64,000 nt of DNA from Syntrophales bacterium (GCA_963668175.1 OY764159.1:352001-416000); one strand, 5' to 3'; positions 7,182 through 38,554 are shown, numbered from the stretch's first letter. The notes: generated by a model not told the origin, from the letters alone. Program-made: numbers and translations.

Positions 7182-8112
7182 TCATGTCCAAGGAGGAGGA
7201 AGTGCCTACATCCCGTGAGACAAAATACAATCTGATCTGTGTCCTCATTACGGTTCTTCTAATCGTGGCCGCCTATTCGAATACCCTGCGCGCGCCCTTT
7301 ATCTTTGACGACCAAGTCAATATCGCCGACAACATGTCCATCCGGAGCATGTGGCCGCCCTGGGAGCCTCTCTATGTCTCCCCAGACACGGGCATAACCG
7401 GAAGACCTTTAATCAACTTCACCTTCGCCCTCAACTATGCCGTCAGTGGCGACGATGTCTGGAGCTATCACGCCCTCAATATTATCATCCAAATCCTGGC
7501 GGCCCTGATTCTGTGGGGATTCATCAGGCGAACACTGGAACGTCAGCAACTCGACATCAACAAGACATGGCAACCGGCATGGGTTGCCCTCGGCTGCACA
7601 CTCGTGTGGGCTCTCCACCCCCTCCAGACCCAGGCTGTGACCTACCTGTCCCAGCGATGCGAATCCCTGATGGGGCTTTTCTTTCTCCTGGTCTTCTACT
7701 GTGCCGTCAGGGGCTGGCAATCAGACCGGCACCAGAGGGCGTGGCACCTGCTGGCCATTCTCTCCTTCGTTGCAGGAGCCGGCTGCAAGGAGGTGATCGC
7801 CGCCTCTCCCGTCCTTCTGTTCCTCTACGAATGGGTATTCACCAGAAGGAGTTGGAAAGACATACTGAAGACTTCCCCCTTGCTGTACTCGGGACTCGCG
7901 TTGGGTTTGGCCTGCGAACTCCTCCTCGTCGCCGCGGGAGGGACGACCTCAACCGGCACGGGTAATCATGCTTTTACTTTAACGGAATACTGGCTGACGC
8001 AGACTCCGGTGATTCTTCACTACATTCGGCTGGTCTTCTGGCCTTCCGATCTCGCTCTCGATTACGGCATGGATTTTCACGGCATGATCGAAACATGGCC
8101 GGCCCTTTTCAT
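7059..8112 (+). repeat. ~1.05 kb direct repeat unit crossing a gene boundary (second copy 8987..10040)
   Basis: Constant 1928 bp offset from gaagccaggg through the stop/RBS junction to ggcccttttcat; scattered substitutions plus one short diverged patch (~7205-7235). Confidence 0.9.
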
Positions 8113-9133
8113 CGTCGCCGCCCTGATCGTCAGTTCTCTGTGGCTGTTGTACAGAAGACGGCCGGCAGGATTCTTGTCTGCCTGGTTCTTCGCCATCCTG
8201 GCCCCGACATCGCTGTTCCCCCTTCCCGACGTTGTTTTTGAGCACCGGATGTATCTTCCTTCCATGGCGGTCATCGTTTTGTCCATATGCTGCTTATATC
8301 GAATGGGGATCTTGATCTGTCGGCGGTTCGCTTTTTTGGACCCGCAAGACACTTTGATCAGGACCGGCAGATATGTCATGGTTTTACTCATTCTGACCGT
8401 GGCAATATCGACTTACGCCAGGAATCTTTACTACCAGTCGGCGCTCTCCATCTGGGCGGACAATGTCGCCAAGAGACCGCATTCGGCCGGGGCGCAGGTT
8501 AATTTCGGTAAAGCCCTCTCGGATGCAAATAGGCCGTTGGACGCCTTGCCCCATTTACGACAGGGAATCCATCTTATAGAAACGCAACAGGCAAAGGCTC
8601 GTCCGGAGACATTGCTCACGGCCTACAATAATACTGGTGCCGTGTATCTTCAACTTGGCCAATGGAAGGCCGCAGAATATTTTTTACGAAGATCGCTGCA
8701 AATCCAAACGAAAAGTATCTACGCTCGCGCCAGTGCTCATTCGAATTTAGGGATTACTTTATTCATGCTCAAGAAAAGCGATGAAGCCGGTGAGCATTTT
8801 CGTCAGGCCATTCTGCTTAGACCGAATTTCGCCAACGGTCATGCCAATTACGGAGCTTTTCTTCGCGCACAGGGAAATACAAAAGAAGCGACGGATCATT
8901 TCCAAGTTGCCCTTCAATTGAAACCCGATCATATCGAGGCCAACGATGCCATGGGCACGATTATGTACCAACGCAGTCAATATCGAGAAGCCAGGGCCTA
9001 TTTCGAGAAATCGCTGGCTTCAAAAGCAGACAACGCATATGCCCGCAACATGTTGATCGAAATCGACAAAAGAGACGGGGTAACGGGAAGCCCTTCAAAG
9101 AAACCTTCATCATATCCAAGGAGAATGAAGTGA
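7184..9133 (+). CDS. TMTC-like GT-C glycosyltransferase with TPR domain, copy 2 (true start probably GTG 7202)
   Basis: Same motifs as copy 1; AGGAGGAGG lies just before the in-frame GTG at 7202. Confidence 0.75.
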   Translation: MSKEEEVPTSRETKYNLICVLITVLLIVAAYSNTLRAPFIFDDQVNIADNMSIRSMWPPWEPLYVSPDTGITGRPLINFTFALNYAVSGDDVWSYHALNIIIQILAALILWGFIRRTLERQQLDINKTWQPAWVALGCTLVWALHPLQTQAVTYLSQRCESLMGLFFLLVFYCAVRGWQSDRHQRAWHLLAILSFVAGAGCKEVIAASPVLLFLYEWVFTRRSWKDILKTSPLLYSGLALGLACELLLVAAGGTTSTGTGNHAFTLTEYWLTQTPVILHYIRLVFWPSDLALDYGMDFHGMIETWPALFIVAALIVSSLWLLYRRRPAGFLSAWFFAILAPTSLFPLPDVVFEHRMYLPSMAVIVLSICCLYRMGILICRRFAFLDPQDTLIRTGRYVMVLLILTVAISTYARNLYYQSALSIWADNVAKRPHSAGAQVNFGKALSDANRPLDALPHLRQGIHLIETQQAKARPETLLTAYNNTGAVYLQLGQWKAAEYFLRRSLQIQTKSIYARASAHSNLGITLFMLKKSDEAGEHFRQAILLRPNFANGHANYGAFLRAQGNTKEATDHFQVALQLKPDHIEANDAMGTIMYQRSQYREARAYFEKSLASKADNAYARNMLIEIDKRDGVTGSPSKKPSSYPRRMK

Positions 9134-11028
9134 TAAAATCCGTTGAGAGAAAGCACGCTCTGGTCTGTGTCCTCGTTACGGTTCTTCTAATCGTGGCCGC
9201 CTATTCGAATACCCTGCGCGCGCCCTTCATCTTTGACGACCGAGTCAATATCGCCGACAACATGTCCATCCGGAGCATGTGGCCGCCCTGGGAGCCTCTC
9301 TATGTCTCCCCAGACACGGGCATAACCGGAAGACCTTTAATCAACTTCACCTTCGCCCTCAACTATGCCGTCAGTGGCGACGATGTCTGGAGCTATCACG
9401 CCCTCAATATTATCATCCAAATCCTGGCGGCCCTGATTCTGTGGGGATTAATAAGGCGAACACTGGAACGGCAGCAACTCGACATCAACAAGACATGGCA
9501 ACCGGCATGGGTTGCCCTCGGCTGCACACTCGTGTGGGCTCTCCACCCCCTCCAGACCCAGGCTGTGACCTACCTGTCCCAGCGATGCGAATCCCTGATG
9601 GGGCTTTTCTTTCTCCTGGTCTTCTACTGTGCCGTCAGGGGCTGGCAATCAGACCGGCACCAGAGGGCCTGGCACCTGCTGGCCATCCTCTCCTTCGTTG
9701 CAGGAGCCGGCTGCAAGGAGGTGATCGCCGCCTCTCCCGTCCTTCTGTTCCTCTACGAATGGGTATTCACCAGAAGGAGTTGGAAAGACATACTGAAGAC
9801 TTCCCCCTTGCTGTACTCGGGACTCGCGTTGGGTTTGGCCTGCGAACTCCTCCTCGTCGCCGCGGGAGGGACGACCTCAACCGGCACGGGTAATCATGCT
9901 TTTACTTTAACGGAATACTGGCTGACGCAGACTCCGGTGATTCTTCACTACATTCGGCTGGTCTTCTGGCCTTCCGATCTCGCTCTCGATTACGGCATGG
10001 ATTTTCACGGCATGATTGAAACATGGCCGGCCCTTTTCATTGTTGCTGCTTTGCTTCCTGTCTCTCTATGGCTTCTGTATAGGCGACAGCCGACGGGATT
10101 TTTGTCCGCCTGGTTCTTCATCATCCTGTCCCCGACATCGCTGTATCCTCTGCCCGACGTAATTTACGAGCATCGCATGTATCTGCCATCCATAGCGATC
10201 GTCGTCCTGGCCACAGGCGGGTTATATCAAATCATTCGCCTGGCAAGCGAGCATTTCATTCCAGGTGTCGCTGCCCGGCGAGTTATTTTAAACAAATCCG
10301 GCCAATATGTCTTGACCCTGCTTATTCTGGCCGTGGCGGTGTCGACCTATGCCAGGAATCTCTACTATCAAGCAGATGTTTCCATCTGGGCGGATAATGT
10401 AGCCAAAAGGCCACAATGCGCCAGAGCACACGTCAATTTAGGGAATGCGCTTTCTGTCATTGGAAGGCCTGTCGATGCCATCCGCCACTTTCAACAGGCT
10501 ATCTCTCTTATAAAATCGCAAGGCATGAGAACCAATTCTCAGAGTCTTATCAACGCTTACAGCAATATGGGTGTTGCTTATCTTCAACTCGAGCAATGGA
10601 AGTCGGCGGAATACTATTTCCGGAAAGCTCTCCAGATTTGGCCGAATAGCGCCCATGCACATACGAATTTAGGTAGGGCTTTATTAATGCTGAAACAAAA
10701 CGATGAAGCCTTTTTTCACTTTCAACAGGCAATTTTAATCAAGCCCCATTATGCCGATGCTCAAGCCAATTATGGTGTCTTCCTTAATGAACAAGGAAAT
10801 TCTGAAGAGGCGATGGTTCATTTTCAGACCGCTCTTCAGGTCATGCCAAAACATGTTGAAGCCAATAACGGCATGGGCACTGTCATGTATCGACGGGGGC
10901 TGTACCCTGCGGCTCGAAACTATTTTAATAAAGTCCTTGAGGTGAGACCGAATCACGAATTCGCACGCAACATGTTGATCGAGCTTGACAAGAAGTCAGA
11001 CAATGGGAGAGAAAGAACAGGTAGATAA
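9130..11028 (+). CDS. TMTC-like GT-C glycosyltransferase with TPR domain, copy 3
   Basis: Same motifs; AAGGAG before a GTG start that overlaps the stop of copy 2. Confidence 0.75.
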   Translation: MIKSVERKHALVCVLVTVLLIVAAYSNTLRAPFIFDDRVNIADNMSIRSMWPPWEPLYVSPDTGITGRPLINFTFALNYAVSGDDVWSYHALNIIIQILAALILWGLIRRTLERQQLDINKTWQPAWVALGCTLVWALHPLQTQAVTYLSQRCESLMGLFFLLVFYCAVRGWQSDRHQRAWHLLAILSFVAGAGCKEVIAASPVLLFLYEWVFTRRSWKDILKTSPLLYSGLALGLACELLLVAAGGTTSTGTGNHAFTLTEYWLTQTPVILHYIRLVFWPSDLALDYGMDFHGMIETWPALFIVAALLPVSLWLLYRRQPTGFLSAWFFIILSPTSLYPLPDVIYEHRMYLPSIAIVVLATGGLYQIIRLASEHFIPGVAARRVILNKSGQYVLTLLILAVAVSTYARNLYYQADVSIWADNVAKRPQCARAHVNLGNALSVIGRPVDAIRHFQQAISLIKSQGMRTNSQSLINAYSNMGVAYLQLEQWKSAEYYFRKALQIWPNSAHAHTNLGRALLMLKQNDEAFFHFQQAILIKPHYADAQANYGVFLNEQGNSEEAMVHFQTALQVMPKHVEANNGMGTVMYRRGLYPAARNYFNKVLEVRPNHEFARNMLIELDKKSDNGRERTGR

Positions 11029-13667: not shown

Positions 13668-14039
13668 TTACGGTGCTGAGGTGATGACGCCGGCCGAGTC
13701 GATGGTGAACGTCTTGGGACCGCTTGCATGTTTCGCAGTGATGGTACCCGCACTCTGACCCATGGCAGGAGTTACCGCGACATCCGTCGTCTGGTTAAAC
13801 CCGTAGGACTTCAAATTATCCAGAGTCGGCGTGCCAGCGGGATTGTCCGAGAAATAGGCCTGCGCCGCTGTATAGGCATTCTTGACGTCCGCATTGGCGG
13901 AAGCATTGTAGCCTCTCTGCCTGTAAGCCGTAAACTGCGGGATGGCGATGGCAGCCAGAATACCGATGATCGCGATGACGATCATGAGTTCGATCAACGT
14001 GAAACCTTTCTGTCCTCTCTTGTGAAACGCTCTAATCAT
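13668..14039 (-). CDS. pilA: Type IVa major pilin
   Basis: Prepilin cleavage site [26 protein letters not shown] with E5; RBS AAGGAG; 111 aa mature protein. Confidence 0.95.
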
Positions 14040-14207
14040 ATTTTTTCTCCTTTATTTAAAGTATATTATTTCTTATTCATTGAAAACCGCATAAAACTTC
14101 TATCTCTTCCCAAATCACCTCCTTTTCTGATCGTTCGTTTTACGATGGTTTCCTTTTCAAACGAATTTGAATTTCAAAGTCTCTTGTATCGGACGTTAAT
14201 GACCGTT

Positions 14208-14223
14208 TGCAACCCGTGTGCCA
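14208..14223 (-). promoter_or_regulatory. Sigma54 (-24/-12) promoter of pilA
   Basis: Minus strand TGGCAC-ACGGG-TTGCA matches the TGGCAC-N5-TTGCW consensus exactly; pilA genes are commonly RpoN-dependent. Confidence 0.85.
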
Positions 14224-14467
14224 CGCTCTCCCGCGGCACAACATATTCATGAATTTATCTTTACATATAGATACTTGCGATTTCGCAACCATTCACGTTG
14301 CACGCAGAGGCTGATATGGGTTGGTCCTTAAATCCGGTGATTTTCACCGCTCACTGTTTTTTTCACGACTTTTTCATGAAACACGGGCGGAGCTCACGAC
14401 TTTGTGATATTGATCTTCCCATTGCATATCGTGATACCGTAGCGAGAGAACGTGAACATTGTAAATC

Positions 14468-20960: not shown

Positions 20961-20986
20961 AATGATCTTTGCGTCTTAAGCGGCTG

Positions 20987-21757
20987 CTATCTTCCGATCA
21001 CGTAGCGATAGGGATCGATCTCTTCGCGCAGAATGGACAGCTCCTGCTTCGTGGGCGGTTTGTTCTCGACGATCTTCTTCGCCTTCAGAAGCTCAAATCC
21101 GCAGTTTTCCTGAACGTCTTTCTCCGTGTAACCGGGATTGACGGCGATGATTCTCATTCTCTTCGATTCCGGTTCAAAATCCATGACGGCCATGTTCGTG
21201 ATGATCTTGTAAGGGCCGGCTCCCAGCGGAAGGCCGGATTTCGCGCGGGAATCCCCGCCCGTCAACCAACCGGGCGTCGTGATGTAGTTGATTTTCTCTG
21301 CGAATCGCTTGGGGTCCTGCGGCGTCATGACCATCATCCTCCAGCAGAAGGAGGCAAAATCATTGGCCCCACCGCTGCCGGGGAATCTGACCTTCGGTTT
21401 CTGGTGATCGGGACCGATTCGGGTCGAATTAAGGTTACCGTACATATCGATCTGGGCGCCGCCGAGGAACGTATAGTCCAGCATGCCTCTGCAGGCCGTT
21501 TCCATAATTTCGCACATACCGGCTGCGATAACCGCTTTGTAAGTGGTCCGGGAATCGCCGACCGAAATGGGCATTTCGGGAATCAAAGGGGCAGCTCCGC
21601 CGGCCTCGAAGAAAATGGCCAGGTTCGGGCTACCGGTTTTTTGGGCAAGCATCGCCGCGGCGCAGGGAGCACCGGTTCCGACGCCGATGGAGGCACCGTC
21701 TTCCAGCTCGCGGGCTGCGGTCGTTATCATCAGTTCCATGGTATTGTAATCAGCCAT
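20987..21757 (-). CDS. gctB: Family I CoA-transferase beta subunit (glutaconate CoA-transferase-like)
   Basis: MADYNTMELM, GVGTG, FEAG catalytic Glu, GGAQIDMYGNLNST and PGSGGAND. Confidence 0.8.
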   Translation of the reverse strand: MADYNTMELMITTAARELEDGASIGVGTGAPCAAAMLAQKTGSPNLAIFFEAGGAAPLIPEMPISVGDSRTTYKAVIAAGMCEIMETACRGMLDYTFLGGAQIDMYGNLNSTRIGPDHQKPKVRFPGSGGANDFASFCWRMMVMTPQDPKRFAEKINYITTPGWLTGGDSRAKSGLPLGAGPYKIITNMAVMDFEPESKRMRIIAVNPGYTEKDVQENCGFELLKAKKIVENKPPTKQELSILREEIDPYRYVIGR

Positions 21758-21775
21758 ACCGTATTCTCCTCCTTT

Positions 21776-22786
21776 CTAGTCTCTGGCTTTGGTGAACATG
21801 AACTCTTTGGCTCTCAGCTTCAACAGCTTGTGCATCCCGCCATTCTTGTCGATGTAATCGAAGTGATCCTTGCAGCTGTATATGTTCTTATCGAGGAATT
21901 TTTTCAATTCATCGGGATTCTCTTCCACCTTCATCCATTCTTTAAGGTGGTCCTCGTCAGAGAAATATTCCCCGTACATGTTGCCGGGGTAGCTGCCGTA
22001 AGGCACTTCGCACACCGCGTCCACGAGCCAGTAAGGAATTACGGTGAAACTTGGGTCTCTGCGAATTTCCTCGTTGGGAATCAGTCTTTCGCAGGTGATG
22101 ATAAGACGCTTGGATGCCCGGGCCACGTCGTAGTCGGATACGGTGATGCCGCGCATACGGCAGTTCCCGTAAATGTCCGCCTCATGAACATGGATGGCCG
22201 ACACATCGGGATAGATGGCCGGCTGGGCAACATACTTGGTCCCCGTGAAGGGGCATTGAATGATTTTGCCGCCGCTGAACTTGAACGTATCGGTTCCCAT
22301 CATGTTTCTTGCGGGATAGAACGATACGCCGGCCGCAGCAGCCTTGAAACGGACGGACAGAGAATAGTTCGTCCATTCGCTGACATCGACTTTGCCGCTT
22401 TCCATGTAGCGTCTTGCATTGGGAGAGAGCCCGCGGGCCTCAAGACCTACGATATAAGCGACATCCAGTTTGTTAAAAACCTCGCCGGCACAGAGAATCT
22501 GGAAATCGTGGGTTGACGTGTGGCCTGCGAAACCCATGTTCTTTCTGCCCTGCCTGACAATTTCATGGGCGACCGCCGCAGGGATCCTGTTGGCGCCGAA
22601 CCCGCCAAGGGTCAAGTAGTCGCCGTCATGGACAAACTTCTCCACGGCCTCTTTGACAGACATCACCTTGGATTCCAGTTTTCGGCTTTTCTTTCGGAAA
22701 AATGCCCTTGCCTTGTCCGCATCAGGGTCTGTGAAGATTTTGCCTACACCTTGATCAATTACTTCCACTGGACTTACCTCCTTCAT
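21776..22786 (-). CDS. gctA: Family I CoA-transferase alpha subunit (glutaconate CoA-transferase-like)
   Basis: VHDGDYLTLGGF, PDVSAIHVHEADIYGN and IPYWLVDAVCEVPYGSYP. Confidence 0.8.
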   Translation of the reverse strand: MKEVSPVEVIDQGVGKIFTDPDADKARAFFRKKSRKLESKVMSVKEAVEKFVHDGDYLTLGGFGANRIPAAVAHEIVRQGRKNMGFAGHTSTHDFQILCAGEVFNKLDVAYIVGLEARGLSPNARRYMESGKVDVSEWTNYSLSVRFKAAAAGVSFYPARNMMGTDTFKFSGGKIIQCPFTGTKYVAQPAIYPDVSAIHVHEADIYGNCRMRGITVSDYDVARASKRLIITCERLIPNEEIRRDPSFTVIPYWLVDAVCEVPYGSYPGNMYGEYFSDEDHLKEWMKVEENPDELKKFLDKNIYSCKDHFDYIDKNGGMHKLLKLRAKEFMFTKARD

Positions 22787-22959: not shown

Positions 22960-23421
22960 CTATGAATCCTTTTTCTTATCAGCAAGGACTTTCCTGAGTT
23001 TTTCTCCCAGGGTTCCAAGGCCGGATTCCGACCTTTCCTGATAGGCAACGGCTACATCCGGCTTGGATGCCTGGCCGCCGAAATAGTCCCCCAGAAGTCC
23101 CCGGCTGTGTTCATCTTCATGACAATAGACGCAGAGGTTCTCCCAGTTGCTTCCGTCCGGGGGATTGTTGTCGTGATTGCCGTCTTTATGATGGACGGTA
23201 AGCAAGTGGCGGTTGGTGTGATCGAATTCTCTCCCGCAATGGGCGCATATCAGGCCGTGGATGGCAAGCGATCTCTCGCGGTAATCGGCCCCGGCCTGCA
23301 GTTGCTGCGCGGCTTTTATATCGCGGACGACATCTTCCAGAGGCCTGGCCGATTTCGTGTCGACTTTGACCGGGCGGGAACGCATCCGCGTCCCCTTGGG
23401 TCCGAAGCTCATTTTCGCCAT
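22960..23421 (-). CDS. yajD: YajD-family HNH nuclease
   Basis: YRERSL, CAHCGREF and LTVHHKDGNHDNNPPDGSNWENLCVYCHEDEH. Confidence 0.85.
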   Translation of the reverse strand: MAKMSFGPKGTRMRSRPVKVDTKSARPLEDVVRDIKAAQQLQAGADYRERSLAIHGLICAHCGREFDHTNRHLLTVHHKDGNHDNNPPDGSNWENLCVYCHEDEHSRGLLGDYFGGQASKPDVAVAYQERSESGLGTLGEKLRKVLADKKKDS

Positions 23422-31020: not shown

Positions 31021-31056
31021 AAAGAAAAAGCCGGAGTTTTCGAACTCCGGCTTTTC
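31021..31056. terminator. Bidirectional intrinsic terminator
   Basis: AAAAGCCGGAGTT-TTCG-AACTCCGGCTTTT between convergent genes. Confidence 0.8.
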
Positions 31057-31079: not shown

Positions 31080-32393
31080 TTATTTGTCATCTTCCTCGTC
31101 ATCGTAGTGCTTGATGGCTTCCTGGGACTCCAGCGGGATCTCGGCTTCGATCGATCTCGTGATGCCCCTCGCCAGAAGCGCCATGATGAAGAATAGCAGA
31201 ACAACGGATATGATGATGATGAGTGTAATCGTTGTGATCCAGGATTTGGACTCTTCCTGGATTTTCTTCGCCGTGGCAGCAGCCAGTTCGTTCGTCTTAT
31301 CGACGTCTATCCCCATCCCGATCCATCCAAACCCGGCCGGTTTCGGCAGATTCGCCGCGTAAAATTTGATGGGTGCATAGGCCACAAACTTCGTGTGTCC
31401 GGCAAATTTATAGGTTTTCATTCCATCCTTGCCGGCAGCGGCATCTTTAGCAATACCCGGCAGATTCGGATCCATAAATCCAAGCAGATTCAGATTTAAG
31501 ACTTCCTCCCCCTTCTTGATTTCGGCATCCTTGTTCTGCTCGGTGAGAGGCGGAACGGCCGATCCGTCGGGATAAAGACCGGCGATGTGGTAATCGGCAG
31601 GATGGGAAATGATGAAGCCCCTGCTGTCAACCATATACGCGTAATTACCCGTCGAGGGATCCGCTTCAAAGACCGGGGTGGACTGCGTCGGGACGATGTG
31701 GTCCGTTATACCCTCCAGGTGCCTCACATCAACGGCAAGGCAAAGAACCCCTGCGAAACCTTCTTTCCCGAAAACCGGTGCGGCGAAACGAATAACACCG
31801 GTGAAACGCTTACCTTTATCGAACTCGGCCTTGTTAACGTACCAACCGGCTATGTTGGATACGTAAATCTCGCCCCTGTTCAAACTTTTCGCTTTATTAA
31901 AATAGTCTTCATTCTTAAAGGTCGTATTAGCGGGGACTCCGACATTAGCCAGCTTCGCCTTGGGCGCTATCTCGCCATTGGCGATCTTGATAACTTCGTT
32001 ACCTTTGGGGTCGATGAGGGACATCTCGGTATAAATGAGCGTCGGCACCTGCTGAATATTGGCACCATCCTTCACCCAAAGCGCTTTCCTGTTTTCGTTG
32101 ACGAATTGCTTGAACGCCGATTCGGTTGCAGGAATAATTGTCGCAATCAACAAATCTTTCTTCCGCTCGTTAAGAAAGCTTGCTACCTCATCTGCCGTGT
32201 TAATGGCTCTTATTTTTATTTCTTCCTGGGATTTTTGATCCATGACGGCAACAGCGCGCTGCCTTGCCGTATCCCCTAATTTGTACATTCCGTTGGCAAT
32301 CAAAATAGCCATCAGTGATAAGGGGATGACGATAAGCAGGAAGAAGACTCTCGCCACAGTGAACAGCTGCTTATCTTTTTTTGTTTCTGACAT
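31080..32393 (-). CDS. Two-TM membrane protein with a large extracytoplasmic Cache-like domain and no cytoplasmic signalling domain
   Basis: TM1, then EDYF...GEIYVS, IRFAAPV, YAYMVDSRGFIISHP and KFVAYAPI, then TM2 and a ~30 aa acidic tail. Confidence 0.75.
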   Translation of the reverse strand: MSETKKDKQLFTVARVFFLLIVIPLSLMAILIANGMYKLGDTARQRAVAVMDQKSQEEIKIRAINTADEVASFLNERKKDLLIATIIPATESAFKQFVNENRKALWVKDGANIQQVPTLIYTEMSLIDPKGNEVIKIANGEIAPKAKLANVGVPANTTFKNEDYFNKAKSLNRGEIYVSNIAGWYVNKAEFDKGKRFTGVIRFAAPVFGKEGFAGVLCLAVDVRHLEGITDHIVPTQSTPVFEADPSTGNYAYMVDSRGFIISHPADYHIAGLYPDGSAVPPLTEQNKDAEIKKGEEVLNLNLLGFMDPNLPGIAKDAAAGKDGMKTYKFAGHTKFVAYAPIKFYAANLPKPAGFGWIGMGIDVDKTNELAAATAKKIQEESKSWITTITLIIIISVVLLFFIMALLARGITRSIEAEIPLESQEAIKHYDDEEDDK

Positions 32394-32445
32394 TCGTTTT
32401 TCCCCCTAACTGTTCTGTTAATTTTGACGTTAATGTGATTTCGGA

Positions 32446-32823
32446 TTAACCCAAAAATAACGACTTATAGGGGTTCGCATAGAGCAGAACGAGTGAAACA
32501 ACCAGGGCATAAATACAAACCGACTCCGCCATGGCCATACCAACGAGCATCGTCGTCATGATCTTACCCTGAACCCCAGGATTTCGTCCGACTGCCTGGC
32601 ACGCACCGTTCGCGGCATTACCGATACCGGCGCCCGCTCCGATGGCCCCGAGCCCGATGGCAAATCCAGCGGCCAGCATGGCTCCGACGGTGAACAGCAC
32701 TTTTACGTAAGACTCCCCTGTTGGAAGGTTCTCCCCCGCAGCGTAGGCCAGCGGAGAGGTGATGAGAACAGCCGCCATTGTTGCCATGATTGACAATACA
32801 CCTTTTCCAAATCTCCTTAACAT
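32446..32823 (-). CDS. atpE: F0 ATP synthase subunit c with a signal-like N-terminal extension, outside any atp operon
   Basis: GLGAIGAGAGIG glycine motif, RNP loop, conserved carboxylate in MAESVCIYAL, ANP ending. Confidence 0.92.
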   Translation of the reverse strand: MLRRFGKGVLSIMATMAAVLITSPLAYAAGENLPTGESYVKVLFTVGAMLAAGFAIGLGAIGAGAGIGNAANGACQAVGRNPGVQGKIMTTMLVGMAMAESVCIYALVVSLVLLYANPYKSLFLG

Positions 32824-32936
32824 CTTCCTTCTCCTTTCCTTTATGTACTTAATAAAAAAGATTTTTTATATTTTACCCGACCCTAGCACAGAAAGCAAAC
32901 CAGGGAAAGGCAAATATTCAAAACGTTGAATGGAAG

Positions 32937-32952
32937 AGCAATTGTTGTGCCA
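32937..32952 (-). promoter_or_regulatory. Sigma54 (-24/-12) promoter upstream of atpE
   Basis: Minus strand TGGCAC-AACAA-TTGCT is an exact consensus match, ~115 nt before the atpE ATG. Confidence 0.8.
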
Positions 32953-32989
32953 CCGGTACGCTCAACGCCAGATATTCCCTATCCATTTA

Positions 32990-33002
32990 TAATGATTTGA
33001 TT
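32990..33002 (-). promoter_or_regulatory. IHF-binding consensus site
   Basis: Minus strand AATCAA-ATCA-TTA fits WATCAANNNNTTR, in an AT-rich stretch ~40 bp upstream of the sigma54 element. Confidence 0.6.
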
Positions 33003-33286
33003 ATTATAATACGAACCCTCCCGAATGGACGTGCATTCGGAACGGTCATTTAAACGTTTCGATAAATCGATTCGAGCAATTGAACAAAAAGTAAAAAAGT
33101 GTGGATTAAGTAAAATGCCGGTTTGCGATGAACGGCCCGGGGATGATATGATTTCCTTTATTTTTTTAACATTTATGTTGATAATTTCACGTGACGTGGG
33201 TAGTATTTTTAAACTGCCGGATGTTGTTCCGCTCTGGCGGTAAGGTATCCTTTCCCAAATAGAATCCACCAGAAAGAGGTTATCGA

Positions 33287-33457
33287 ATGCAGGAAATATT
33301 GACGGCCGTAACCTATCTTATTACCTGGTTCTTCTGCGAACGCGTTCTCGGCATTGAAAGTGGTTTGGTTAACCTTATCGTTTCGCTTGGCGTTGCCGTG
33401 GCTGTTTATGTCATCATCGCCGTCAGGGCAAGTCGCAAGAAATCCGGTTCAGATTAA
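33287..33457 (+). CDS. 56 aa two-helix membrane protein (below the ORF-track cutoff)
   Basis: GAGGT RBS; MQEILTAVTYLITWFFCERVLGIESGLVNLIVSLGVAVAVYVIIAVRASRKKSGSD with a basic C-terminal tail; ends 26 nt before the kinase gene. Confidence 0.65.
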   Translation: MQEILTAVTYLITWFFCERVLGIESGLVNLIVSLGVAVAVYVIIAVRASRKKSGSD

Positions 33458-33483
33458 AGTGAACCGCTGACAGACCTCGCTTC

Positions 33484-36400
33484 ATGGAAGATTCTTCGCA
33501 CAACAAAAGAAAAGGCTTTTTCCCGATCAGTGCCTCCTTGTCCATCTGGCTGACAACGATCACCATCATTGTCCTTATTTTGCTGTTGGCCATTACGATC
33601 AACCGGTCCCGGGAGAAGGAACTGGTTGCGGATTTCTGCCAGCAGCAGACCTCCCTGGCCAAAGGGGCGGCGGCCGGGATCGAAGACTTGGTGATCGGCG
33701 TTGAAAAGAGCATGATCCTGCTTTCCCGATTGACGATCACCCGCGGCGATCTCTACAGGGAGAAGTCAATGACCAGTATGAGGGCGATTTACGACGATCT
33801 GGAAGGCAAAGTCTCGTTCATTGCAGAAACGGATAAGAACGGTATCGTCCTGACGGGGTACCCGGAGGCCATCCTTGAGGAAATCAAGGGACAGGATTTC
33901 AGCCGGTATCCCTTTTTCCAGGATATACGACGGACCCGCTCCCCCGATATCGGCCCCTCTCCCGCCATTGTCCATCTCAAAGACAAGGTCCCGGCCGCGG
34001 GACTTAAGTCCATTATTGTCGGCGCACCGCAACTATCTGCCGGACGAGAGTTTGCCGGGACTATTTTCACAACCCTGTCCCTGAATACGACTATCGACCG
34101 ATACGTCAAACCGATTAAGGACAATCCGACAAACGAATATTGGGTTATCGACGATACCGGCATTCTCGTCGAGCATCCGAATGCGGCTCTCGTCGGGAAA
34201 AACATCAATGCCATAGAATTCTTTGACGAAACGGGCCGGATCAGGCTCGATGATCTTGTGAAGAACGGCAAAGAGGGCTGTTTCGAATGCAGAATGCGGA
34301 AAGGCAGGAACGCCTTCGAGAAGAATTTGTTTGCCTATGCCCCCATCCATGTGGGTCACGAAACATGGTATATTGTCGTCGTGACGCCTTATGAAAAAGT
34401 CGTCGCCATGATCAGAAGGACATTCACCCATACGATGTTCATCGCCTTCGGCCTGATCGTCGTCGTCGTGATTGCGAGTTTCACGATTATCGGTGCCGGC
34501 CGGAGGCGGACGAGAATCGACGCCGAACTGAAACGGCTCCGCGAGAGAGAATCCTGGCAGGAACAGCTGATCAGGGAAAAGCGGACGATAGAAGGCATCA
34601 TCGCGGGTTCGCCCATTCCCACCTTCGTCATCGACAAGGAACATAAAGTCATCCTGTGGAACAGGGCTTGCGCGGAATTGACGGGCGTCGGTTCTCAAGA
34701 TATCATCGGCACGGATAAACACTCCGTTCCTTTTTACGGCGCGCAAAAGAGACCGCTTATTGCGGACCTGATCATCGATCAGGACGTCGGCGGCCTGGAA
34801 AAATTTTACAGCGACAAAAGAATCAGGAAGTCGGAGAAGGTTCAGGGCGCTTACGAGGCCATGGACTATTATGAGAACCTGGGGGGCATGCAGCGCTATC
34901 TCTATTTCCTGGCCGCCCCGATACTCGACGAGAAGGGGGAGATCATTGCCGCCATCGAAACGCTCCAGGACATGTCCGGAGAGGAGGCGATGTCTCAAAG
35001 CCTGCGGGAATCTCAGGAACAGCTCCTCCGTGAGAAGAAAACCATAGAAGGAATCATCGAAGGATCGCCCATCCCCACCTTTGTCGTTAACAAGGAACAC
35101 AAGGTCATCCTCTGGAACCGTGCCTGCGCAGAACTCACGGGGCTGGAAGCTAAAGACATGATCAATACGGACAAGCAGTATATTCCTTTTTATCGGAACA
35201 AGCGATCGATCCTCGCCGATCTGATCATCGATCAGGATATCGAAGGCCTGACCAAATACTACGGAACCAAAAGAGTGAAGAAATCGGAAACCGTCGAAGG
35301 TGCTTATGAAGCCATGGATTTCTATCAGAACCTCGGTGGAAAATCCCGTTACCTGTTCTTTCTGGCGTCGCCCATCTACGATGAAAAGGGCGAAATCGTC
35401 GCGGCGATAGAGACGCTTCAGGATGTCACTCATGAAAAAGAAATGGCCAGGAATCTTCAGGAATACGCCGAGACCCTGGAAAACGAAGTCACGGAAAACG
35501 TAACACTCCGGCAGGAGATCGAATCGTTATACAACTATCTCCAGTCCATCGTCGAAAGCTCGCCCGACACCCTGTTCGATATCAGCAGCGACGGCATTAT
35601 CAATTACATCAGCCGCGATTTGAAAGGAAAGAACCGTTTCGCTTCCGATCAGATCAAGGGCAAGCATTTCACGGAAGTGATCGATCAGGAGCATCGGGAC
35701 GTGATCATTTCCATGTGGGAGAACGCCAAGAAGGGCATATACAAACCCTATGAAATCGAGGTCCGGAAGGATGACGATACCGTCATGAATCTTTTAATCA
35801 CGTGCCGGCCTGTGGCCAAGACGGATCGTTACGTCGTCGTCCAGCGGGATATCACCGAATTCAAGAACCTGGAGAAGAAATTTTACGAAAGCCAGAAATT
35901 GGCGGCGATCGGCCAGTTGTCCGCCGGTATCGCCCATGAAATCAGAAATCCCCTCTCTTCGATCAAGATGAGCCTTCAGATTCTGGACAAAAGGATGCAG
36001 CCGACGGGAAACGATCAGAAGAGGTTTCAAATCGCCCAGCGGGAAGTGGAACACCTGGAAGAACTCGTCAACGACGTGCTGATCTACGCCAAGCCGGCCG
36101 ACCCGGTCAAGGAAAAATCGAATCTGCAAAGCATATTGGAACACGCCCTGGCCATGGCGGAGAAATCCATTATCGATAAACATATTCACGTCCAGCTCGA
36201 AAGTGCTGATATGCCGCTTGTCTCGGTCGACGCCGCCATGATAGGACAGGCCTTTCTGAATTTATATCGGAATGCCGTCGATGCCATGGAAACGGGAGGA
36301 ACGCTTTCCATCTCCGCCCACCTCTCGGCGTCCAACGGATCGGTCAGTATCACCGTACGGGATAACGGGTGCGGCATCGACGAACAGGACTTGGGCCATC

Positions 36401-36561
36401 TCTTCAATCCCTTCTTCACCAAGAAGAGTTTCGGCACGGGACTGGGTTTGAGTCAGGTCAAAAAAATCATTGACCTTCATCAGGGAAGCATAGAGATTGC
36501 GAGCAAGAAAGGGACCGGCACCAGCGTAACCGTGACGCTCCCCATCGAATCAACCCCTTAA
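33484..36561 (+). CDS. Sensor histidine kinase (TM-Cache-TM, three PAS domains, HisKA, HATPase)
   Basis: H box AHEIRNPL, N box NLYRNAVDAM, DNGCG, FNPFFT and GTGLGL. Confidence 0.92.
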   Translation: MEDSSHNKRKGFFPISASLSIWLTTITIIVLILLLAITINRSREKELVADFCQQQTSLAKGAAAGIEDLVIGVEKSMILLSRLTITRGDLYREKSMTSMRAIYDDLEGKVSFIAETDKNGIVLTGYPEAILEEIKGQDFSRYPFFQDIRRTRSPDIGPSPAIVHLKDKVPAAGLKSIIVGAPQLSAGREFAGTIFTTLSLNTTIDRYVKPIKDNPTNEYWVIDDTGILVEHPNAALVGKNINAIEFFDETGRIRLDDLVKNGKEGCFECRMRKGRNAFEKNLFAYAPIHVGHETWYIVVVTPYEKVVAMIRRTFTHTMFIAFGLIVVVVIASFTIIGAGRRRTRIDAELKRLRERESWQEQLIREKRTIEGIIAGSPIPTFVIDKEHKVILWNRACAELTGVGSQDIIGTDKHSVPFYGAQKRPLIADLIIDQDVGGLEKFYSDKRIRKSEKVQGAYEAMDYYENLGGMQRYLYFLAAPILDEKGEIIAAIETLQDMSGEEAMSQSLRESQEQLLREKKTIEGIIEGSPIPTFVVNKEHKVILWNRACAELTGLEAKDMINTDKQYIPFYRNKRSILADLIIDQDIEGLTKYYGTKRVKKSETVEGAYEAMDFYQNLGGKSRYLFFLASPIYDEKGEIVAAIETLQDVTHEKEMARNLQEYAETLENEVTENVTLRQEIESLYNYLQSIVESSPDTLFDISSDGIINYISRDLKGKNRFASDQIKGKHFTEVIDQEHRDVIISMWENAKKGIYKPYEIEVRKDDDTVMNLLITCRPVAKTDRYVVVQRDITEFKNLEKKFYESQKLAAIGQLSAGIAHEIRNPLSSIKMSLQILDKRMQPTGNDQKRFQIAQREVEHLEELVNDVLIYAKPADPVKEKSNLQSILEHALAMAEKSIIDKHIHVQLESADMPLVSVDAAMIGQAFLNLYRNAVDAMETGGTLSISAHLSASNGSVSITVRDNGCGIDEQDLGHLFNPFFTKKSFGTGLGLSQVKKIIDLHQGSIEIASKKGTGTSVTVTLPIESTP

Positions 36562-36573
36562 CAAGGATATGAC

Positions 36574-37956
36574 ATGTCCAACATTCTCGTGATCGACGAC
36601 GACAGTTCCATCAGGGAAACGCTTGACCTGTATCTCGCGGAAGAAGGATACAAGGTGTTCACCGCCAAGGATGGTACGGAAGGGCTCGACATGTTCGTCC
36701 AGAAATCGCCCGACGTCGTGATTCTCGACATACGCCTGCCGGACATCGACGGATTCACCGTCCTTGAGGACCTGCGGGAAGAGAATGAAAATGTCAAGGT
36801 CATCATGATCACGGCGCATCACGACATGGAATCCACGATCAAGGCCATGAAGGGGGGGGCCTTCGATTACATCCACAAGCCGGTGAACGTCGACGAACTC
36901 GATCTGGCCATCAAGAAGGCCCTGAAGGCCCTCGAGATGGAAAAGAAGATCGACGGTCTGCTCATGGAACCGTCCCGGCAGTTCAAGGTCGGCGACATTA
37001 TAGGCTCCGGACGCGAGATGAGGGAAGTGTTCAAGACGATCGGGGTCGTATCCCAGAGCCGGACGACCGTCCTTATCCTGGGCGAAAGCGGAACGGGCAA
37101 GGAGCTCATCGCCAAGGTCATTCATCACAACACGTCCCGGGACGAACCCTACATCGCCATCAACTGCTCCGCCATCGTGGAAACCCTCCTCGAATCGGAG
37201 CTTTTCGGGCACGAGAAAGGATCCTTTACCGGCGCCGTCACAAAAAAGCTGGGAAAATTCGAGCAGGCCCGTTATGGAACCGTTTTTCTCGATGAAATCA
37301 GTGAAATGTCCCTGAACCTCCAGGCGAAGCTCCTCCGCGTCCTGCAGGAACTGGAATTTGAACGGGTGGGGGGAAAGGACCGAATCCGCGTCAACGCGAG
37401 AATCATCGCGGCGACCAATAAAGACCTCAAGGCTATGGTACAGGAAGGCAGGTTCCGGGACGATCTCTATTACCGCCTGAATATCGTCTCCATCCGTATA
37501 CCGCCTCTCCGTGAGCGAAGAGAGGACATCCCCATGTTGGTCGAGTATCTTTTGGCCAAGATCAACCGCGACCTCCATAAGCGCGTGCTCGGCATAGCCG
37601 ACGATATGATGGACATCTTCATGAAATACCCCTGGCCGGGCAACGTGCGCGAGTTGGAGAACCTCCTCGTCCGGGCGGTCGTGGTAACGAAGAGCCAGAT
37701 CCTGGGCAAGAACGACTTCCCCGAACTGTCCATGAGCGGCACGGAAACCGCCGAGAAGAAACTTTCGGCGGCGGACGACTCCAGCGCCGCCGGGAAATGG
37801 CTGACGCTCGATGAAGTGGAAGAGAGACACATCCGTAAAATCATCAGCGAGGCCGGAGGAAAGAACAAGGGAGAATTGTGCGAGATACTGGGCATTTCCC
37901 GGCCCACCTTAGAACGCAAGCTCGAAAAATACGGCATCCATTTCGAACGGGAGTGA
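36574..37956 (+). CDS. NtrC-family sigma54-dependent response regulator
   Basis: Receiver (DDD, LDIRLP), GESGTGKE, GSFTGA, FLDEI, WPGNVREL, C-terminal Fis-type HTH. Confidence 0.95.
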   Translation: MSNILVIDDDSSIRETLDLYLAEEGYKVFTAKDGTEGLDMFVQKSPDVVILDIRLPDIDGFTVLEDLREENENVKVIMITAHHDMESTIKAMKGGAFDYIHKPVNVDELDLAIKKALKALEMEKKIDGLLMEPSRQFKVGDIIGSGREMREVFKTIGVVSQSRTTVLILGESGTGKELIAKVIHHNTSRDEPYIAINCSAIVETLLESELFGHEKGSFTGAVTKKLGKFEQARYGTVFLDEISEMSLNLQAKLLRVLQELEFERVGGKDRIRVNARIIAATNKDLKAMVQEGRFRDDLYYRLNIVSIRIPPLRERREDIPMLVEYLLAKINRDLHKRVLGIADDMMDIFMKYPWPGNVRELENLLVRAVVVTKSQILGKNDFPELSMSGTETAEKKLSAADDSSAAGKWLTLDEVEERHIRKIISEAGGKNKGELCEILGISRPTLERKLEKYGIHFERE

Positions 37957-37966
37957 CCTGTAGACG

Positions 37967-38554
37967 ATGAAAGTAACAACGGCCGAATTTGTGAAATCGG
38001 CAGAAACGCCATCCCAGTACCCGAAGGAAGACTTTCCGGAAATCGCCTTTGTCGGCCGATCCAACGTCGGCAAATCCTCCCTCATCAACTGCATCCTGAA
38101 ACGCAAGAAGCTCGCCCACACGAGCAATACGCCGGGACGCACCCAATTGATCAACTTCTTTCTGGTCAACAACGGTTTTCTATTTGTGGATTTACCCGGT
38201 TACGGTTATGCGAAAGTCCCGGAGAGCGTGAGGAAGAAATGGGGACCCATGATCGAGACGTATCTGACGACAAGGCGATCGCTGAAGATGGTGGTCATGA
38301 TCCTCGATATCAGGAGAGATCCGTCGGAAGACGACCTTTCTCTCATCCGTTGGTTCGACCATTACGACATCCCTGTGTGCTTCGTCCTGACCAAGGCCGA
38401 TAAACTGACGAGAAGCAACCGGTTAAACCGCCAGACCGAAATCAGGGAATCATTGGGACTTCCGAAAGAGCAGGAACTGCTTCTCTTTTCCGCCAAATCG
38501 GGCGAAGGCGCGGAAACGCTGAGAAGGGAAATAGAGAAGAACCTCTCCTCCTGA
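37967..38554 (+). CDS. engB: Ribosome biogenesis GTPase EngB/YihA/YsxC
   Basis: GRSNVGKSS, TPGRTQ, DLPGYG and TKAD. Confidence 0.95.
   Translation: MKVTTAEFVKSAETPSQYPKEDFPEIAFVGRSNVGKSSLINCILKRKKLAHTSNTPGRTQLINFFLVNNGFLFVDLPGYGYAKVPESVRKKWGPMIETYLTTRRSLKMVVMILDIRRDPSEDDLSLIRWFDHYDIPVCFVLTKADKLTRSNRLNRQTEIRESLGLPKEQELLLFSAKSGEGAETLRREIEKNLSS

Follow-up and report, generated by a model that had tools for sequence, protein, structure and literature searches.

A gene for an F-type ATP synthase c subunit (atpE, its product here called c1) stands alone in this stretch of Syntrophales DNA, directly followed by a gene for a Cache-domain membrane protein and preceded by a sigma54 promoter, with a two-component system encoded divergently beyond it. 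On comparative sequence grounds, the c1-Cache pair, its promoter, and the two-component system next to it constitute a regulatory module found throughout the Syntrophales, and no published description of such a system was found. Our preferred reading is that c1 is a second isoform of the rotor subunit, expressed conditionally under the control of the two-component system; we hold it tentatively, at a little short of an even chance. The features are collected in Table 1, with positions counted in the window, by which we mean the whole 64-kb stretch of DNA that was analysed. The first-pass annotation had described a lone atpE, a Cache gene 52 nt past it closed by a terminator, and divergent genes for a 56 aa membrane protein, a Cache/PAS kinase, and an NtrC-type activator, and every element it listed is present where it was placed. 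The isolation of atpE extends over the 44 large ORFs of the window that were scanned with Pfam, among which there is no further atp gene, and rpoN is likewise absent from the scanned ORFs.

Table 1. Features of the c1 locus, in window coordinates
Feature	Position	Strand	Description
Terminator-like hairpin closing the c1-Cache operon	31025-31056	-	Stem of 14 pairs (6 GC), 4-nt loop, T run; 24 nt past the Cache stop codon
Cache membrane protein gene	31080-32393	-	437 aa; dCache
c1-Cache spacer	32394-32445	-	52 nt (from gene coordinates); own GGGGGA ribosome-binding site
c1, F-type c-subunit gene	32446-32823	-	125 aa; PF00137 and TIGR01260 above cut-off
c1 5' leader stem-loop	32862-32918	-	RNAfold z, covariance model R1
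Sigma54 -24/-12 element	32937-32952	-	TGGCACAACAATTGCT, exact match
IHF-consensus match	32990-33002	-	AATCAAATCATTA, exact to WATCAANNNNTTR; weakly supported
Upstream inverted repeat	33058-33087	-	TTGTTCAAT-N11-ATTTATCGAA
56-aa hydrophobic membrane ORF	33287-33457	+	First in divergent operon
Sensor histidine kinase	33484-36561	+	1025 aa; TM, dCache_1, TM, 3 PAS, HisKA, HATPase
NtrC-type response regulator / sigma54 enhancer-binding protein	36574-37956	+	460 aa; Response_reg, Sigma54_activat, AAA_lid_14, HTH_8

The c1 protein scores 65.7 bits against PF00137 (cut-off 24) and 48.5 bits against TIGR01260 (cut-off 43.95). Its N-terminus resembles a signal peptide, and it has the RNP loop and Glu100. 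Its helical hairpin is mostly invariant across 35 aligned family members, and both in that alignment and in a joint one with the paralog c2, taken up below, the Arg80-Asn81-Pro82 loop and Glu100 are invariant, as are Ser101 and Tyr105. Among solved structures, its best relatives are c rings of the F type; the loop and Glu100 align with these, and at the position of the Gln found in Na+ rings c1 has a hydrophobic residue. Mature c1 carries a conserved periplasmic N-terminal tail that is missing from c2. From these sequence features, c1 has the look of a functional rotor subunit and of a complete F-type c subunit.

For comparison, 80 Syntrophales genome loci were used. The Cache gene lies directly after c1 in 78/78 loci with continuing sequence, the divergent genes, with a homologue of the small ORF in its usual place, are present in 72 of the 76 with room for them, and the activator gene is found in 51 of the 55 having more than 6 kb upstream. 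In L014, L030, L063, and L066, the two-component system is not adjacent and the c1-Cache pair is still together. The spacer between the two genes is conserved in sequence and measures 36-58 nt in 74 of 79 measured regions, and that of the window contains no terminator-like site.

The sigma54 and IHF motifs are unremarkable when judged within the window alone, where the sigma54 pattern with up to one mismatch gives 3 matches (1.53 expected) and the IHF pattern also gives 3 (2.25 expected, i.e., chance level). What makes the sigma54 element significant is its conservation among related loci: the -24/-12 pattern occurs 90-160 nt ahead of the c1 start in 75/80, and in the remaining 5 that position is taken by a near-consensus GG-N10-GC. 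The exact element reported earlier upstream of atpE is confirmed, and its GG-N10-GC core extends to 80/80 loci. The IHF site fared less well, since the consensus match does exist, between the upstream repeat and the promoter, but the strict consensus is retained in just 2/70 regions (against 1.4% of shuffles), which leaves it without support from conservation. The upstream inverted repeat, with consensus half-sites TTTCGTTCAAT and ATTGAAYGAAA, is found in 44/70 regions and in 14/1400 shuffles, the pattern having been derived from the same regions in which it was counted. It lies 133-139 nt upstream of the -24 box in 42 of those 44 regions and is absent or different in the Smithella-like loci. 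It is probably where the activator binds. Sigma54 dependence alone does not prove conditional expression. In the leader, invariant TT and TGnTA are spaced as in an extended -10 promoter of the sigma70 type, which, if real, would give activator-independent transcription of c1.

The c1 leader itself contains a stem-loop that begins ~7 nt downstream of the inferred transcription start. RNAfold gives c1 leaders a mean z of -3.1, with 51/60 under -1.5, against control means of 0.05 (3/70 under -1.5) and -0.56 (10/70). The covariance model R1 scores 40.1 bits at the leader in the window, and over 1.25 Mb it finds c1 leaders only, save for reverse-strand echoes and one weak match. Formal covariation support for the hairpin is modest. 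It has no Rfam match, and we regard this conserved 5'-leader hairpin as a new element, which probably stabilises or tunes the c1 mRNA.

Turning to the divergent operon, the first ORF has no Pfam or NCBIfam family, and its homologues in the same divergent position are 46-74% identical. The activator matches Sigma54_activat (PF00158) at 227 bits, and its translation has a GSFTGA loop of the GAFTGA type. AtoS and AtoC are the best NCBIfam matches, and the two proteins are like them without reaching equivalog level, the kinase scoring 278 bits against the AtoS cut-off of 646, and the activator 487 bits against the AtoC cut-off of 714. Among the loci, aligned stretches of the kinase have a median identity of 60% where they extend into the kinase core and ~42% where they cover the sensor region.

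The case for c1 as one of two isoforms depends on the relatives. In 8 loci, all from one clade, a second c paralog, c2, ~45% identical to c1, adjoins the module tail-to-tail; the scanned flanks of L003, L014, and L063 contain no atp gene besides c2. Ahead of c2 there is a sigma70-like TTGACA-N15-TAGAAT in 8/8 loci, and a sigma54 motif in 0/8. The two paralogs have in common the Glu/Ser/Tyr ion site, the loop, and the hydrophobic residue replacing the Na+-ring Gln, and comparing their sequences reveals no functional difference. For Ca. Smithella cisternae M82_1, Table S9 of PMC5606693 has two genes for subunit C alongside a single atpB and a single F1 cluster; one c gene, 437_33, is on the scaffold that gives our locus L029, and the other shares a scaffold with atpB. 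The conserved regulation, the c2 paralog, and the two c genes with one a subunit in M82_1 make a regulated alternative rotor subunit plausible, the picture of two isoforms in one enzyme being drawn from one draft genome table and 8 related loci of one clade. Of the first-pass proposal to that effect, the layout and the regulatory logic stand, and the second c subunit is seen in relatives only; the re-gearing of the ATP synthase, the separate ring, and the inducibility that it put forward are conjectural. The shared ion-site residues lend no support to a change of ion specificity between the paralogs. A second ATP synthase in S. aciditrophicus is suggested by the UniProt names atpA1 and atpF1 that appear in PMC8942843's supplement, and so paralogs could also serve different enzymes.

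A first alternative concerns which of the two paralogs is the ordinary one. If c1 were the principal housekeeping c subunit of an F1Fo enzyme with scattered Fo genes, and c2 the accessory or specialised copy, then sigma54 with a normally active two-component system would simply be how this lineage ordinarily transcribes c1. Scattering has been described, the Fo genes of M82_1 being called dispersed, and the set reported for S. aciditrophicus, SYN_00544-00549, encodes alpha, beta, and gamma along with two homologues of b, neither a nor c being among the proteins detected in that report. The wide occurrence of c1, at up to 276 genome loci found by c1-specific peptide patterns, its high conservation, including the mostly invariant hairpin, and its invariant, strong GAAAGGAG ribosome-binding site also fit a housekeeping subunit, and the 5' hairpin is of a kind typical for stable, abundant mRNAs. 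The promoters speak against it, however, c2 being the copy whose -35 box is a perfect TTGACA and which lacks a sigma54 motif, and so do the database relatives, 2877 for a c2 query versus 617 for a c1 query, a count by which c1 may be the lineage-specific copy. It is also the other c gene of M82_1, besides 437_33, that is on the atpB scaffold, and the module's having a kinase of its own, equipped with four sensory domains, suggests that a signal is in control. On balance, we consider a housekeeping c1 rather unlikely, with a chance that is still substantial.

In the Cache protein, a periplasmic double-Cache domain is flanked by two transmembrane helices, TM1 and TM2, and a short, acidic tail follows in the cytoplasm. 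Its dCache_1 score of 39.8 bits is under the Pfam cut-off of 45, and precomputed annotation has PF02743 in all the listed homologues. The AF2 model has a pLDDT of 74.8, and Foldseek against the PDB matches it with probability 1.0 to dCache ligand-binding domains, among them Mlp24, PctA, and kinase sensor domains, with a TM-score of ~0.6 on the target. Apart from the protein itself, the nearest representative is P0363, a fused relative that shares 52% identity over residues 9-416 and is a 1138-aa PAS/GAF histidine kinase. Only ~25 residues follow TM2, with no attached output or transmitter domain. The Cache protein is a sensor module of the histidine-kinase type that lacks a transmitter.

Two further alternatives to our reading turn on what such a module does beside a rotor subunit. 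One has c1 and the Cache protein forming a complex of their own outside F1Fo, which could be a c-ring ion conductor under ligand control, or else has the Cache module docking on rotors that contain c1 and braking or gating them when a periplasmic ligand binds. The pairing persists in all 78 loci, even where the two-component system has left the neighborhood, TM1 of the Cache protein is near-invariant among 44 homologues, as the c1 helices are and as the kinase sensor region is not, and the periplasmic tail is peculiar to c1. Adjacency by itself, however, is weak evidence for binding, and contact between the two proteins is hypothetical. In F-type enzymes, the Arg-Asn-Pro loop contacts gamma and epsilon, and its retention in c1 argues for a role in F1Fo. 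This reading, in either form, seems improbable to us.

The other alternative makes the Cache protein the true output, a feedback co-sensor of the kinase like CpxP or MgrB, with c1 an ordinary copy of the c subunit that only shares its transcript. Accessory regulators encoded within the operon they help control are a known design, and the homology of the Cache protein to kinase sensor modules is full-length. BLASTP finds no significant similarity, though, between the Cache protein and the adjacent kinase's own sensor domain (best E = 0.39). It is also c1 that is promoter-proximal and carries the conserved leader, and across loci the conservation of c1 is no lower than that of the Cache protein (median identity 70% versus 64%). 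We think it very doubtful that c1 is a passenger.

Returning to c1 as a conditional second isoform, the regulatory path would run as follows. The adjacent Cache/PAS kinase would phosphorylate the NtrC-type activator, which we infer binds the inverted repeat, located ~135 nt ahead of the -24 box, to turn on the sigma54 promoter, driving the two-gene operon of c1 and then the Cache gene. In this scheme, c1 would be the conditional one of the lineage's two c isoforms, c2 being under sigma70-type elements, and it would join the c-ring of a single F1Fo ATP synthase, either by itself or together with c2, which would leave rotor composition to the two-component system. The Cache protein would most likely bind a periplasmic ligand and act through its invariant TM helices and acidic tail, on either the kinase, as feedback, or the c1 ring. 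If this is true, a switchable spare rotor subunit may let Syntrophales tune their energy-conserving motor to conditions. A bolder version, which we rate as a long shot, has the Cache module docking on c1 rings by its invariant TM helix and the conserved periplasmic tail of mature c1, with a periplasmic metabolite directly gating or braking the passage of protons, whether in the ATP synthase or in a c1 ring on its own, and the two-component system timing the swap from the ordinary c2 rotor. Organisms at the thermodynamic limit would then have an ATP synthase regulated by a ligand.

Several known systems resemble parts of this one. In Acetobacterium woodii, the c genes are part of the atp operon and transcribed with it, one of them encodes a duplicated four-helix form, and the ring binds Na+. 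The A. woodii F1Fo (hybrid c-ring, PDB ID: 4BEM) is like our proposal in having more than one kind of c subunit in one F-type enzyme, and no solved structure matches the c1 of the window better than its c1 chain does (E = 7.6 × 10−23). The c1 of the window differs in being encoded apart from other atp genes, under a sigma54 promoter and a regulator of its own, in consisting of one hairpin only, and in lacking the Na+-site Gln. The N-ATPase, an alternate F1Fo operon, offers a second rotor gene set in one genome, maybe for other conditions, and in this it resembles c1. An N-ATPase c subunit was rejected as the identity of c1, which at 64.9 bits falls short of the 130.85 required by TIGR03322 and has no accompanying atp gene among the scanned ORFs of the window.

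For the regulatory half, DctBD and MifSR combine a double-Cache kinase, an NtrC-type activator, and a divergent membrane-protein gene. DctB/DctD-dctA, MifS/MifR, and AtoS/AtoC share with our module the periplasmic Cache-type kinase, the NtrC activator, the divergent sigma54 membrane-protein target, and the upstream repeat, but their target is a transporter or catabolic operon, and here it is a rotor subunit with an orphan sensor module. Finally, the c subunit of Aquifex aeolicus reportedly has a cleavable N-terminal signal peptide, and c1 and c2 appear similar to it in sequence, both having a hydrophobic N-terminal extension with an Ala-x-Ala-like end before helix 1.

The module is centred on c1, a stand-alone gene for an F-type c subunit, with its neighbours and candidate control sites collected in the table. 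By its profile scores the c1 product is a bona fide F-type c subunit, and a proposed membership in the N-ATPase family was rejected on a score under that family's cut-off. The first-pass annotation had described an atpE with no other atp gene nearby, separated by 52 nt from a Cache-domain membrane gene that ends at a terminator, with a sigma54 element upstream and a divergently encoded 56-aa membrane protein, Cache/PAS kinase and NtrC-type activator. All of these are borne out by the ORF listing, profile scans and hairpin, and Pfam scans of 44 large ORFs in the 64-kb window find no further atp gene. The nearest database relatives carry the names Syntrophales, Syntrophobacterales, Syntrophus or Smithella, and the window is accordingly assigned to an uncultured Syntrophales member. 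Assignment of the kinase and activator to AtoSC was rejected, as both scores are under cut-off.

Features of the c1 module and an example of its paralog c2 (positions in the window unless a locus is named)
Feature	Position	Strand	Details
c1, F-type c subunit	32446-32823	-	125 aa; PF00137 65.7 bits (cut-off 24), TIGR01260 48.5 (cut-off 43.95)
c1-Cache spacer	32394-32445	-	52 nt
Cache protein	31080-32393	-	437 aa; dCache_1 39.8 bits, weak, under cut-off 45
Strong terminator-like hairpin	31056-31025	-	3' of Cache gene
Hydrophobic ORF	33287-33457	+	56 aa
Kinase	33484-36561	+	1025 aa; dCache_1, three PAS, HisKA, HATPase
NtrC-type activator	36574-37956	+	460 aa; receiver, Sigma54_activat, lid, HTH_8, GSFTGA loop
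Sigma54 element TGGCACAACAATTGCT	32937-32952	-	113 nt upstream of c1 start codon
Inverted repeat, window copy	33058-33087		probable activator-binding site
c2 example	L003:11991-12371	-	equivalent places in L001, L002, L004-L006, L008, L049

One genome per species was scanned for relatives of the c protein using two c1-specific peptide patterns, giving 276 confirmed loci, of which the best 80 were analysed; the titles of these are mostly Syntrophales, Syntrophaceae, Smithella, Syntrophus or unclassified Deltaproteobacteria. Conservation of the arrangement and promoter across Syntrophales, put forward in the first-pass annotation as a check on the module, is largely borne out in these 80. The Cache gene directly follows c1 in 78, and in the remaining 2 the contig stops 114 and 16 nt past c1. 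The divergent 56-aa ORF is upstream of c1 in 72 of the 76 loci with room for it, and the regulator gene is found in 51 of the 55 having more than 6 kb of upstream sequence. A -24/-12 pattern lies 90-160 nt upstream of c1 in 75/80, and in the other five the same position is occupied by AGGCAC-N5-TTGCA, CGGCAT-N5-TTGCG or TGGCAC-N5-TTGCG. In four loci (L014, L030, L063 and L066) c1 is still paired with the Cache gene but different genes lie upstream, and there the -24/-12 element is still present by pattern in the first three and near-consensus in L066. Two loci have broken frames, L049 (9879-11695), a complete-chromosome record in which c1 and the Cache gene are split into several ORFs, and L037 (10427-11734), with the Cache gene likewise split; these may be assembly indels and not real pseudogenes. 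Directly 3' of the regulator gene in the window is a small GTPase gene (MMR_HSR1, 37967-38554, plus strand), which we take to be of the EngB/YihA type, and for most of the 80 loci tblastn detects a homologue in the upstream flank, on the side of the regulator. The adjacency is probably plain synteny, and the gene could be co-transcribed with the regulator.

Within the window by themselves the sigma54 and IHF motifs are unremarkable, with 3 matches to the sigma54 pattern at no more than one mismatch versus 1.53 expected. The IHF consensus pointed out earlier upstream of c1 does match, but at about the chance level for the window (3 matches versus 2.25 expected), and it is not conserved, the strict consensus being retained in only 2 of 70 upstream regions. 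Apart from the c1 element, TGGCAC-N5-TTGCW is matched exactly just once in the window, by TGGCACACGGGTTGCA at 14208-14223 (minus strand), which lies antisense inside a 174-aa ORF (13728-14252) with no Pfam family. The regions upstream of c1 have in common an inverted repeat with consensus half-sites TTTCGTTCAAT and ATTGAAYGAAA, then CGTTAAA. It is found in 44/70 regions versus 14/1400 shuffles by a pattern built from the same regions in which it was counted, and since the pattern derives from the same data, the stronger argument is its fixed position: in 42 regions it stands 133-139 nt upstream of the -24 box. The repeat was not found in Smithella-like loci, which have other upstream sequence in common. 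From this arrangement it is very likely that the kinase would act through the activator, that the activator would bind at the inverted repeat, as predicted, and that the sigma54 promoter would drive a c1-Cache transcript.

The c1 leaders, taken from the inferred transcription start (about 32925) to the start codon, have in common a pyrimidine tract, a TGnTA that is invariant and a purine tract. Around TGnTA, a segment of 61 nt forms an extended hairpin with a mean z of -3.1 against mononucleotide shuffles, 51 of 60 leaders being under -1.5, while control segments have mean z of 0.05 (3/70 under -1.5) and -0.56 (10/70). Stems specific to clades remain complementary, as with CCTCTTTTCCG and CGGAAAGAGG in L041 and CTAAGT and ACTTGG in L080. 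RNAalifold predicts 0 pairs from two leader alignments because the stem registers shift between clades, so the hairpin rests on the folding-energy z-scores together with a modest covariation signal. When the structure is imposed, the covariation score of 0.276-0.277 exceeds all slid controls and is reached by 0 of 500 shuffles (0.224-0.231), and pairs altered on both sides are no more numerous than in shuffles (224/500). A covariance model run over 1.25 Mb finds c1 leaders only, besides reverse-strand echoes and one weak match at E = 0.34, and it recovers loci outside the seed including L014, L019, L027, L028, L030 and L063. Rfam has no match to the element, and two tRNAs are all its matches in the window. 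The conserved letters could also be read as DNA, with the leader TT and TGnTA as the -35 TT and extended -10 box of a sigma70 promoter; both are invariant and spaced like sigma70 elements, but the -7 position is unconserved.

Among 79 regions measured, 74 have a c1-Cache spacer of 36-58 nt. The spacer sequence is conserved (ATTAAC...AAAATTAACA...GTTAGGGGGA), including its own GGGGGA ribosome-binding site, and this hints at a small structure or a signal for translation that may set the ratio of the two products.

Over 35 sequences the c1 family has a mean column identity of 82%, with Arg80-Asn81-Pro82, Glu100, Ser101 and Tyr105 invariant. It has an N-terminal hydrophobic extension with Ala-x-Ala at its end, and a conserved Glu-x-Leu-Pro-x-Gly-Glu-Ser-Tyr tail ahead of helix 1. 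The c-subunit loop contacts the central stalk, and since all the features of a rotor subunit are kept, that loop included, c1 most likely works in F1Fo. Among solved relatives F-type c rings match best, with the Acetobacterium woodii c1 at the top. In the Ilyobacter tartaricus ring the Na+ ligands are Gln32, Glu65, Ser66, Thr67 and Tyr70. In the alignment with the A. woodii chain, Ile67 of c1 stands opposite the Gln of Gly-Ile-Gly-Gln-Gly, and c1 has Glu-Ser-Val opposite Glu-Thr-Ser. Two polar Na+ ligands are thus missing from c1, and on that account we tentatively regard it as probably proton-coupled.

A permissive search of the locus flanks finds a second c-subunit gene, c2, in 8 loci (L001-L006, L008 and L049), a few hundred bases past the Cache gene on the opposite strand, tail-to-tail and also solitary. 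It encodes about 126 aa, likewise with a signal-peptide-like start. Identity to c1 is about 45% overall, with about 55% for the hairpin; c2 has the same loop and Glu-Ser...Tyr, and Met at the position of c1 Ile67. Nothing in the two sequences points to a difference in ion or ring size. The c2 family is widespread, with 2877 database matches, Syntrophales and Smithella among them. Upstream of c2, TTGACA-N15-TAGAAT is present in 8/8 copies and a sigma54 motif in 0/8, and the leader is long (about 190 nt), with a conserved perfect palindrome GAGACATG-N3-CATGTCTC immediately 5' of the ribosome-binding site.

For a count of subunits in one draft genome there is Table S9 for Ca. Smithella cisternae M82_1 (PMC5606693), which lists one F1 cluster (463_2 to 463_7), two b genes (463_8 and 463_9), one atpB (4_23) and two genes named "ATP synthase subunit C" (4_31 and 437_33). 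Scaffold 437 of that assembly, which is locus L029, carries the module, so we infer that 437_33 is c1. For S. aciditrophicus, PMC8942843 discusses Atp1 via its alpha subunit (SYN_00546), its beta subunit (SYN_00544) and its gamma subunit (SYN_00545), gives two b homologues (SYN_00548 and SYN_00549), and has neither an a nor a c subunit among the detected proteins; the names atpA1 and atpF1 there hint at a second enzyme. The literature searched does not describe a stand-alone atpE that is under sigma54 control and paired with a Cache gene.

The question is then what c1 does beside c2. We lean, tentatively, to c1 as a conditional isoform, because a second isoform with sigma70-type elements exists, because c2 outnumbers c1 among database relatives, and because one genome table has two c genes to a single a subunit and a single F1 cluster. 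The alternative that c1 is itself the housekeeping c subunit appears rather unlikely.

The Cache protein was compared with 44 homologues at 66-90% identity, with an N-terminal cytoplasmic stub and TM1 that are almost invariant and a tail whose consensus ends Tyr-Asp-Asp-Glu-Glu. One AF2 model (pLDDT 74.8, pTM 0.68; the other four were poor) has a long TM1-stalk helix, a double-PDC domain and a TM2 helix, and Foldseek groups it at probability 1.0 with the dCache ligand-binding domains of chemoreceptors and kinases, in agreement with a language-model search. An exhaustive profile search gives 435 representatives, of which the nearest outside its own cluster, P0363 (52% identity over residues 9-416), continues into PAS, GAF, HisKA and HATPase domains, and others, with identities of 33-38%, are kinases of the HAMP or PAS kind. 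By these matches the Cache protein is a kinase-type sensor module without a transmitter. It is not a close paralog of the adjacent kinase's sensor (best BLASTP E = 0.39). SYN_03116, an abundant S. aciditrophicus "hypothetical exported protein" of 433 aa and pI 4.79 (PMC8942843), was rejected as its orthologue, since the peptide given for it is absent by reading from the Cache translation of L035, and the computed pI of that translation, 6.57, also counts against orthology. A complex prediction of the Cache protein with mature c1 (residues 29-125) scored 0.07 (mark 0.32) and weighs neither way. A separate or receptor-gated ring of c1 we find quite improbable. That the Cache protein serves purely as a feedback co-sensor we hold to be very improbable.

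Syntrophic oxidisers of fatty and aromatic acids subsist on fractions of an ATP and need ATP synthase in both directions for reverse electron transport, and the ion-to-ATP ratio is set by the number and kind of c subunits. A candidate rotor isoform that comes with a sensor kinase and sigma54 switch of its own, a leader RNA and a sensor protein as companion, conserved in at least 80 species-level genomes, would give a concrete handle on the long-standing question of whether syntrophs tune the coupling ratio or gate ATP synthase by conditions. Its testable parts include a defined promoter/operator and an orphan Cache module open to ligand screening, and mature c1 and c2 should be separable by mass spectrometry since their sequences differ.

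Elsewhere in the window there are two large ORFs without a Pfam family (1927-3396 and 20969-22516, both plus strand; 489 and 515 aa) and an isolated HNH-endonuclease ORF (22960-23421, minus strand). At 3415-11028 (plus strand) four paralogs, each encoding about 620-650 aa, stand in tandem; all four products have a C-terminal TPR block, and three also have a membrane part that resembles glycosyltransferases (PMT_2 or DUF6056). Next to this array are genes of the GT87, B12-radical-SAM and GT2 families and another PMT_2 gene, and the region looks like a glycosylation cluster.
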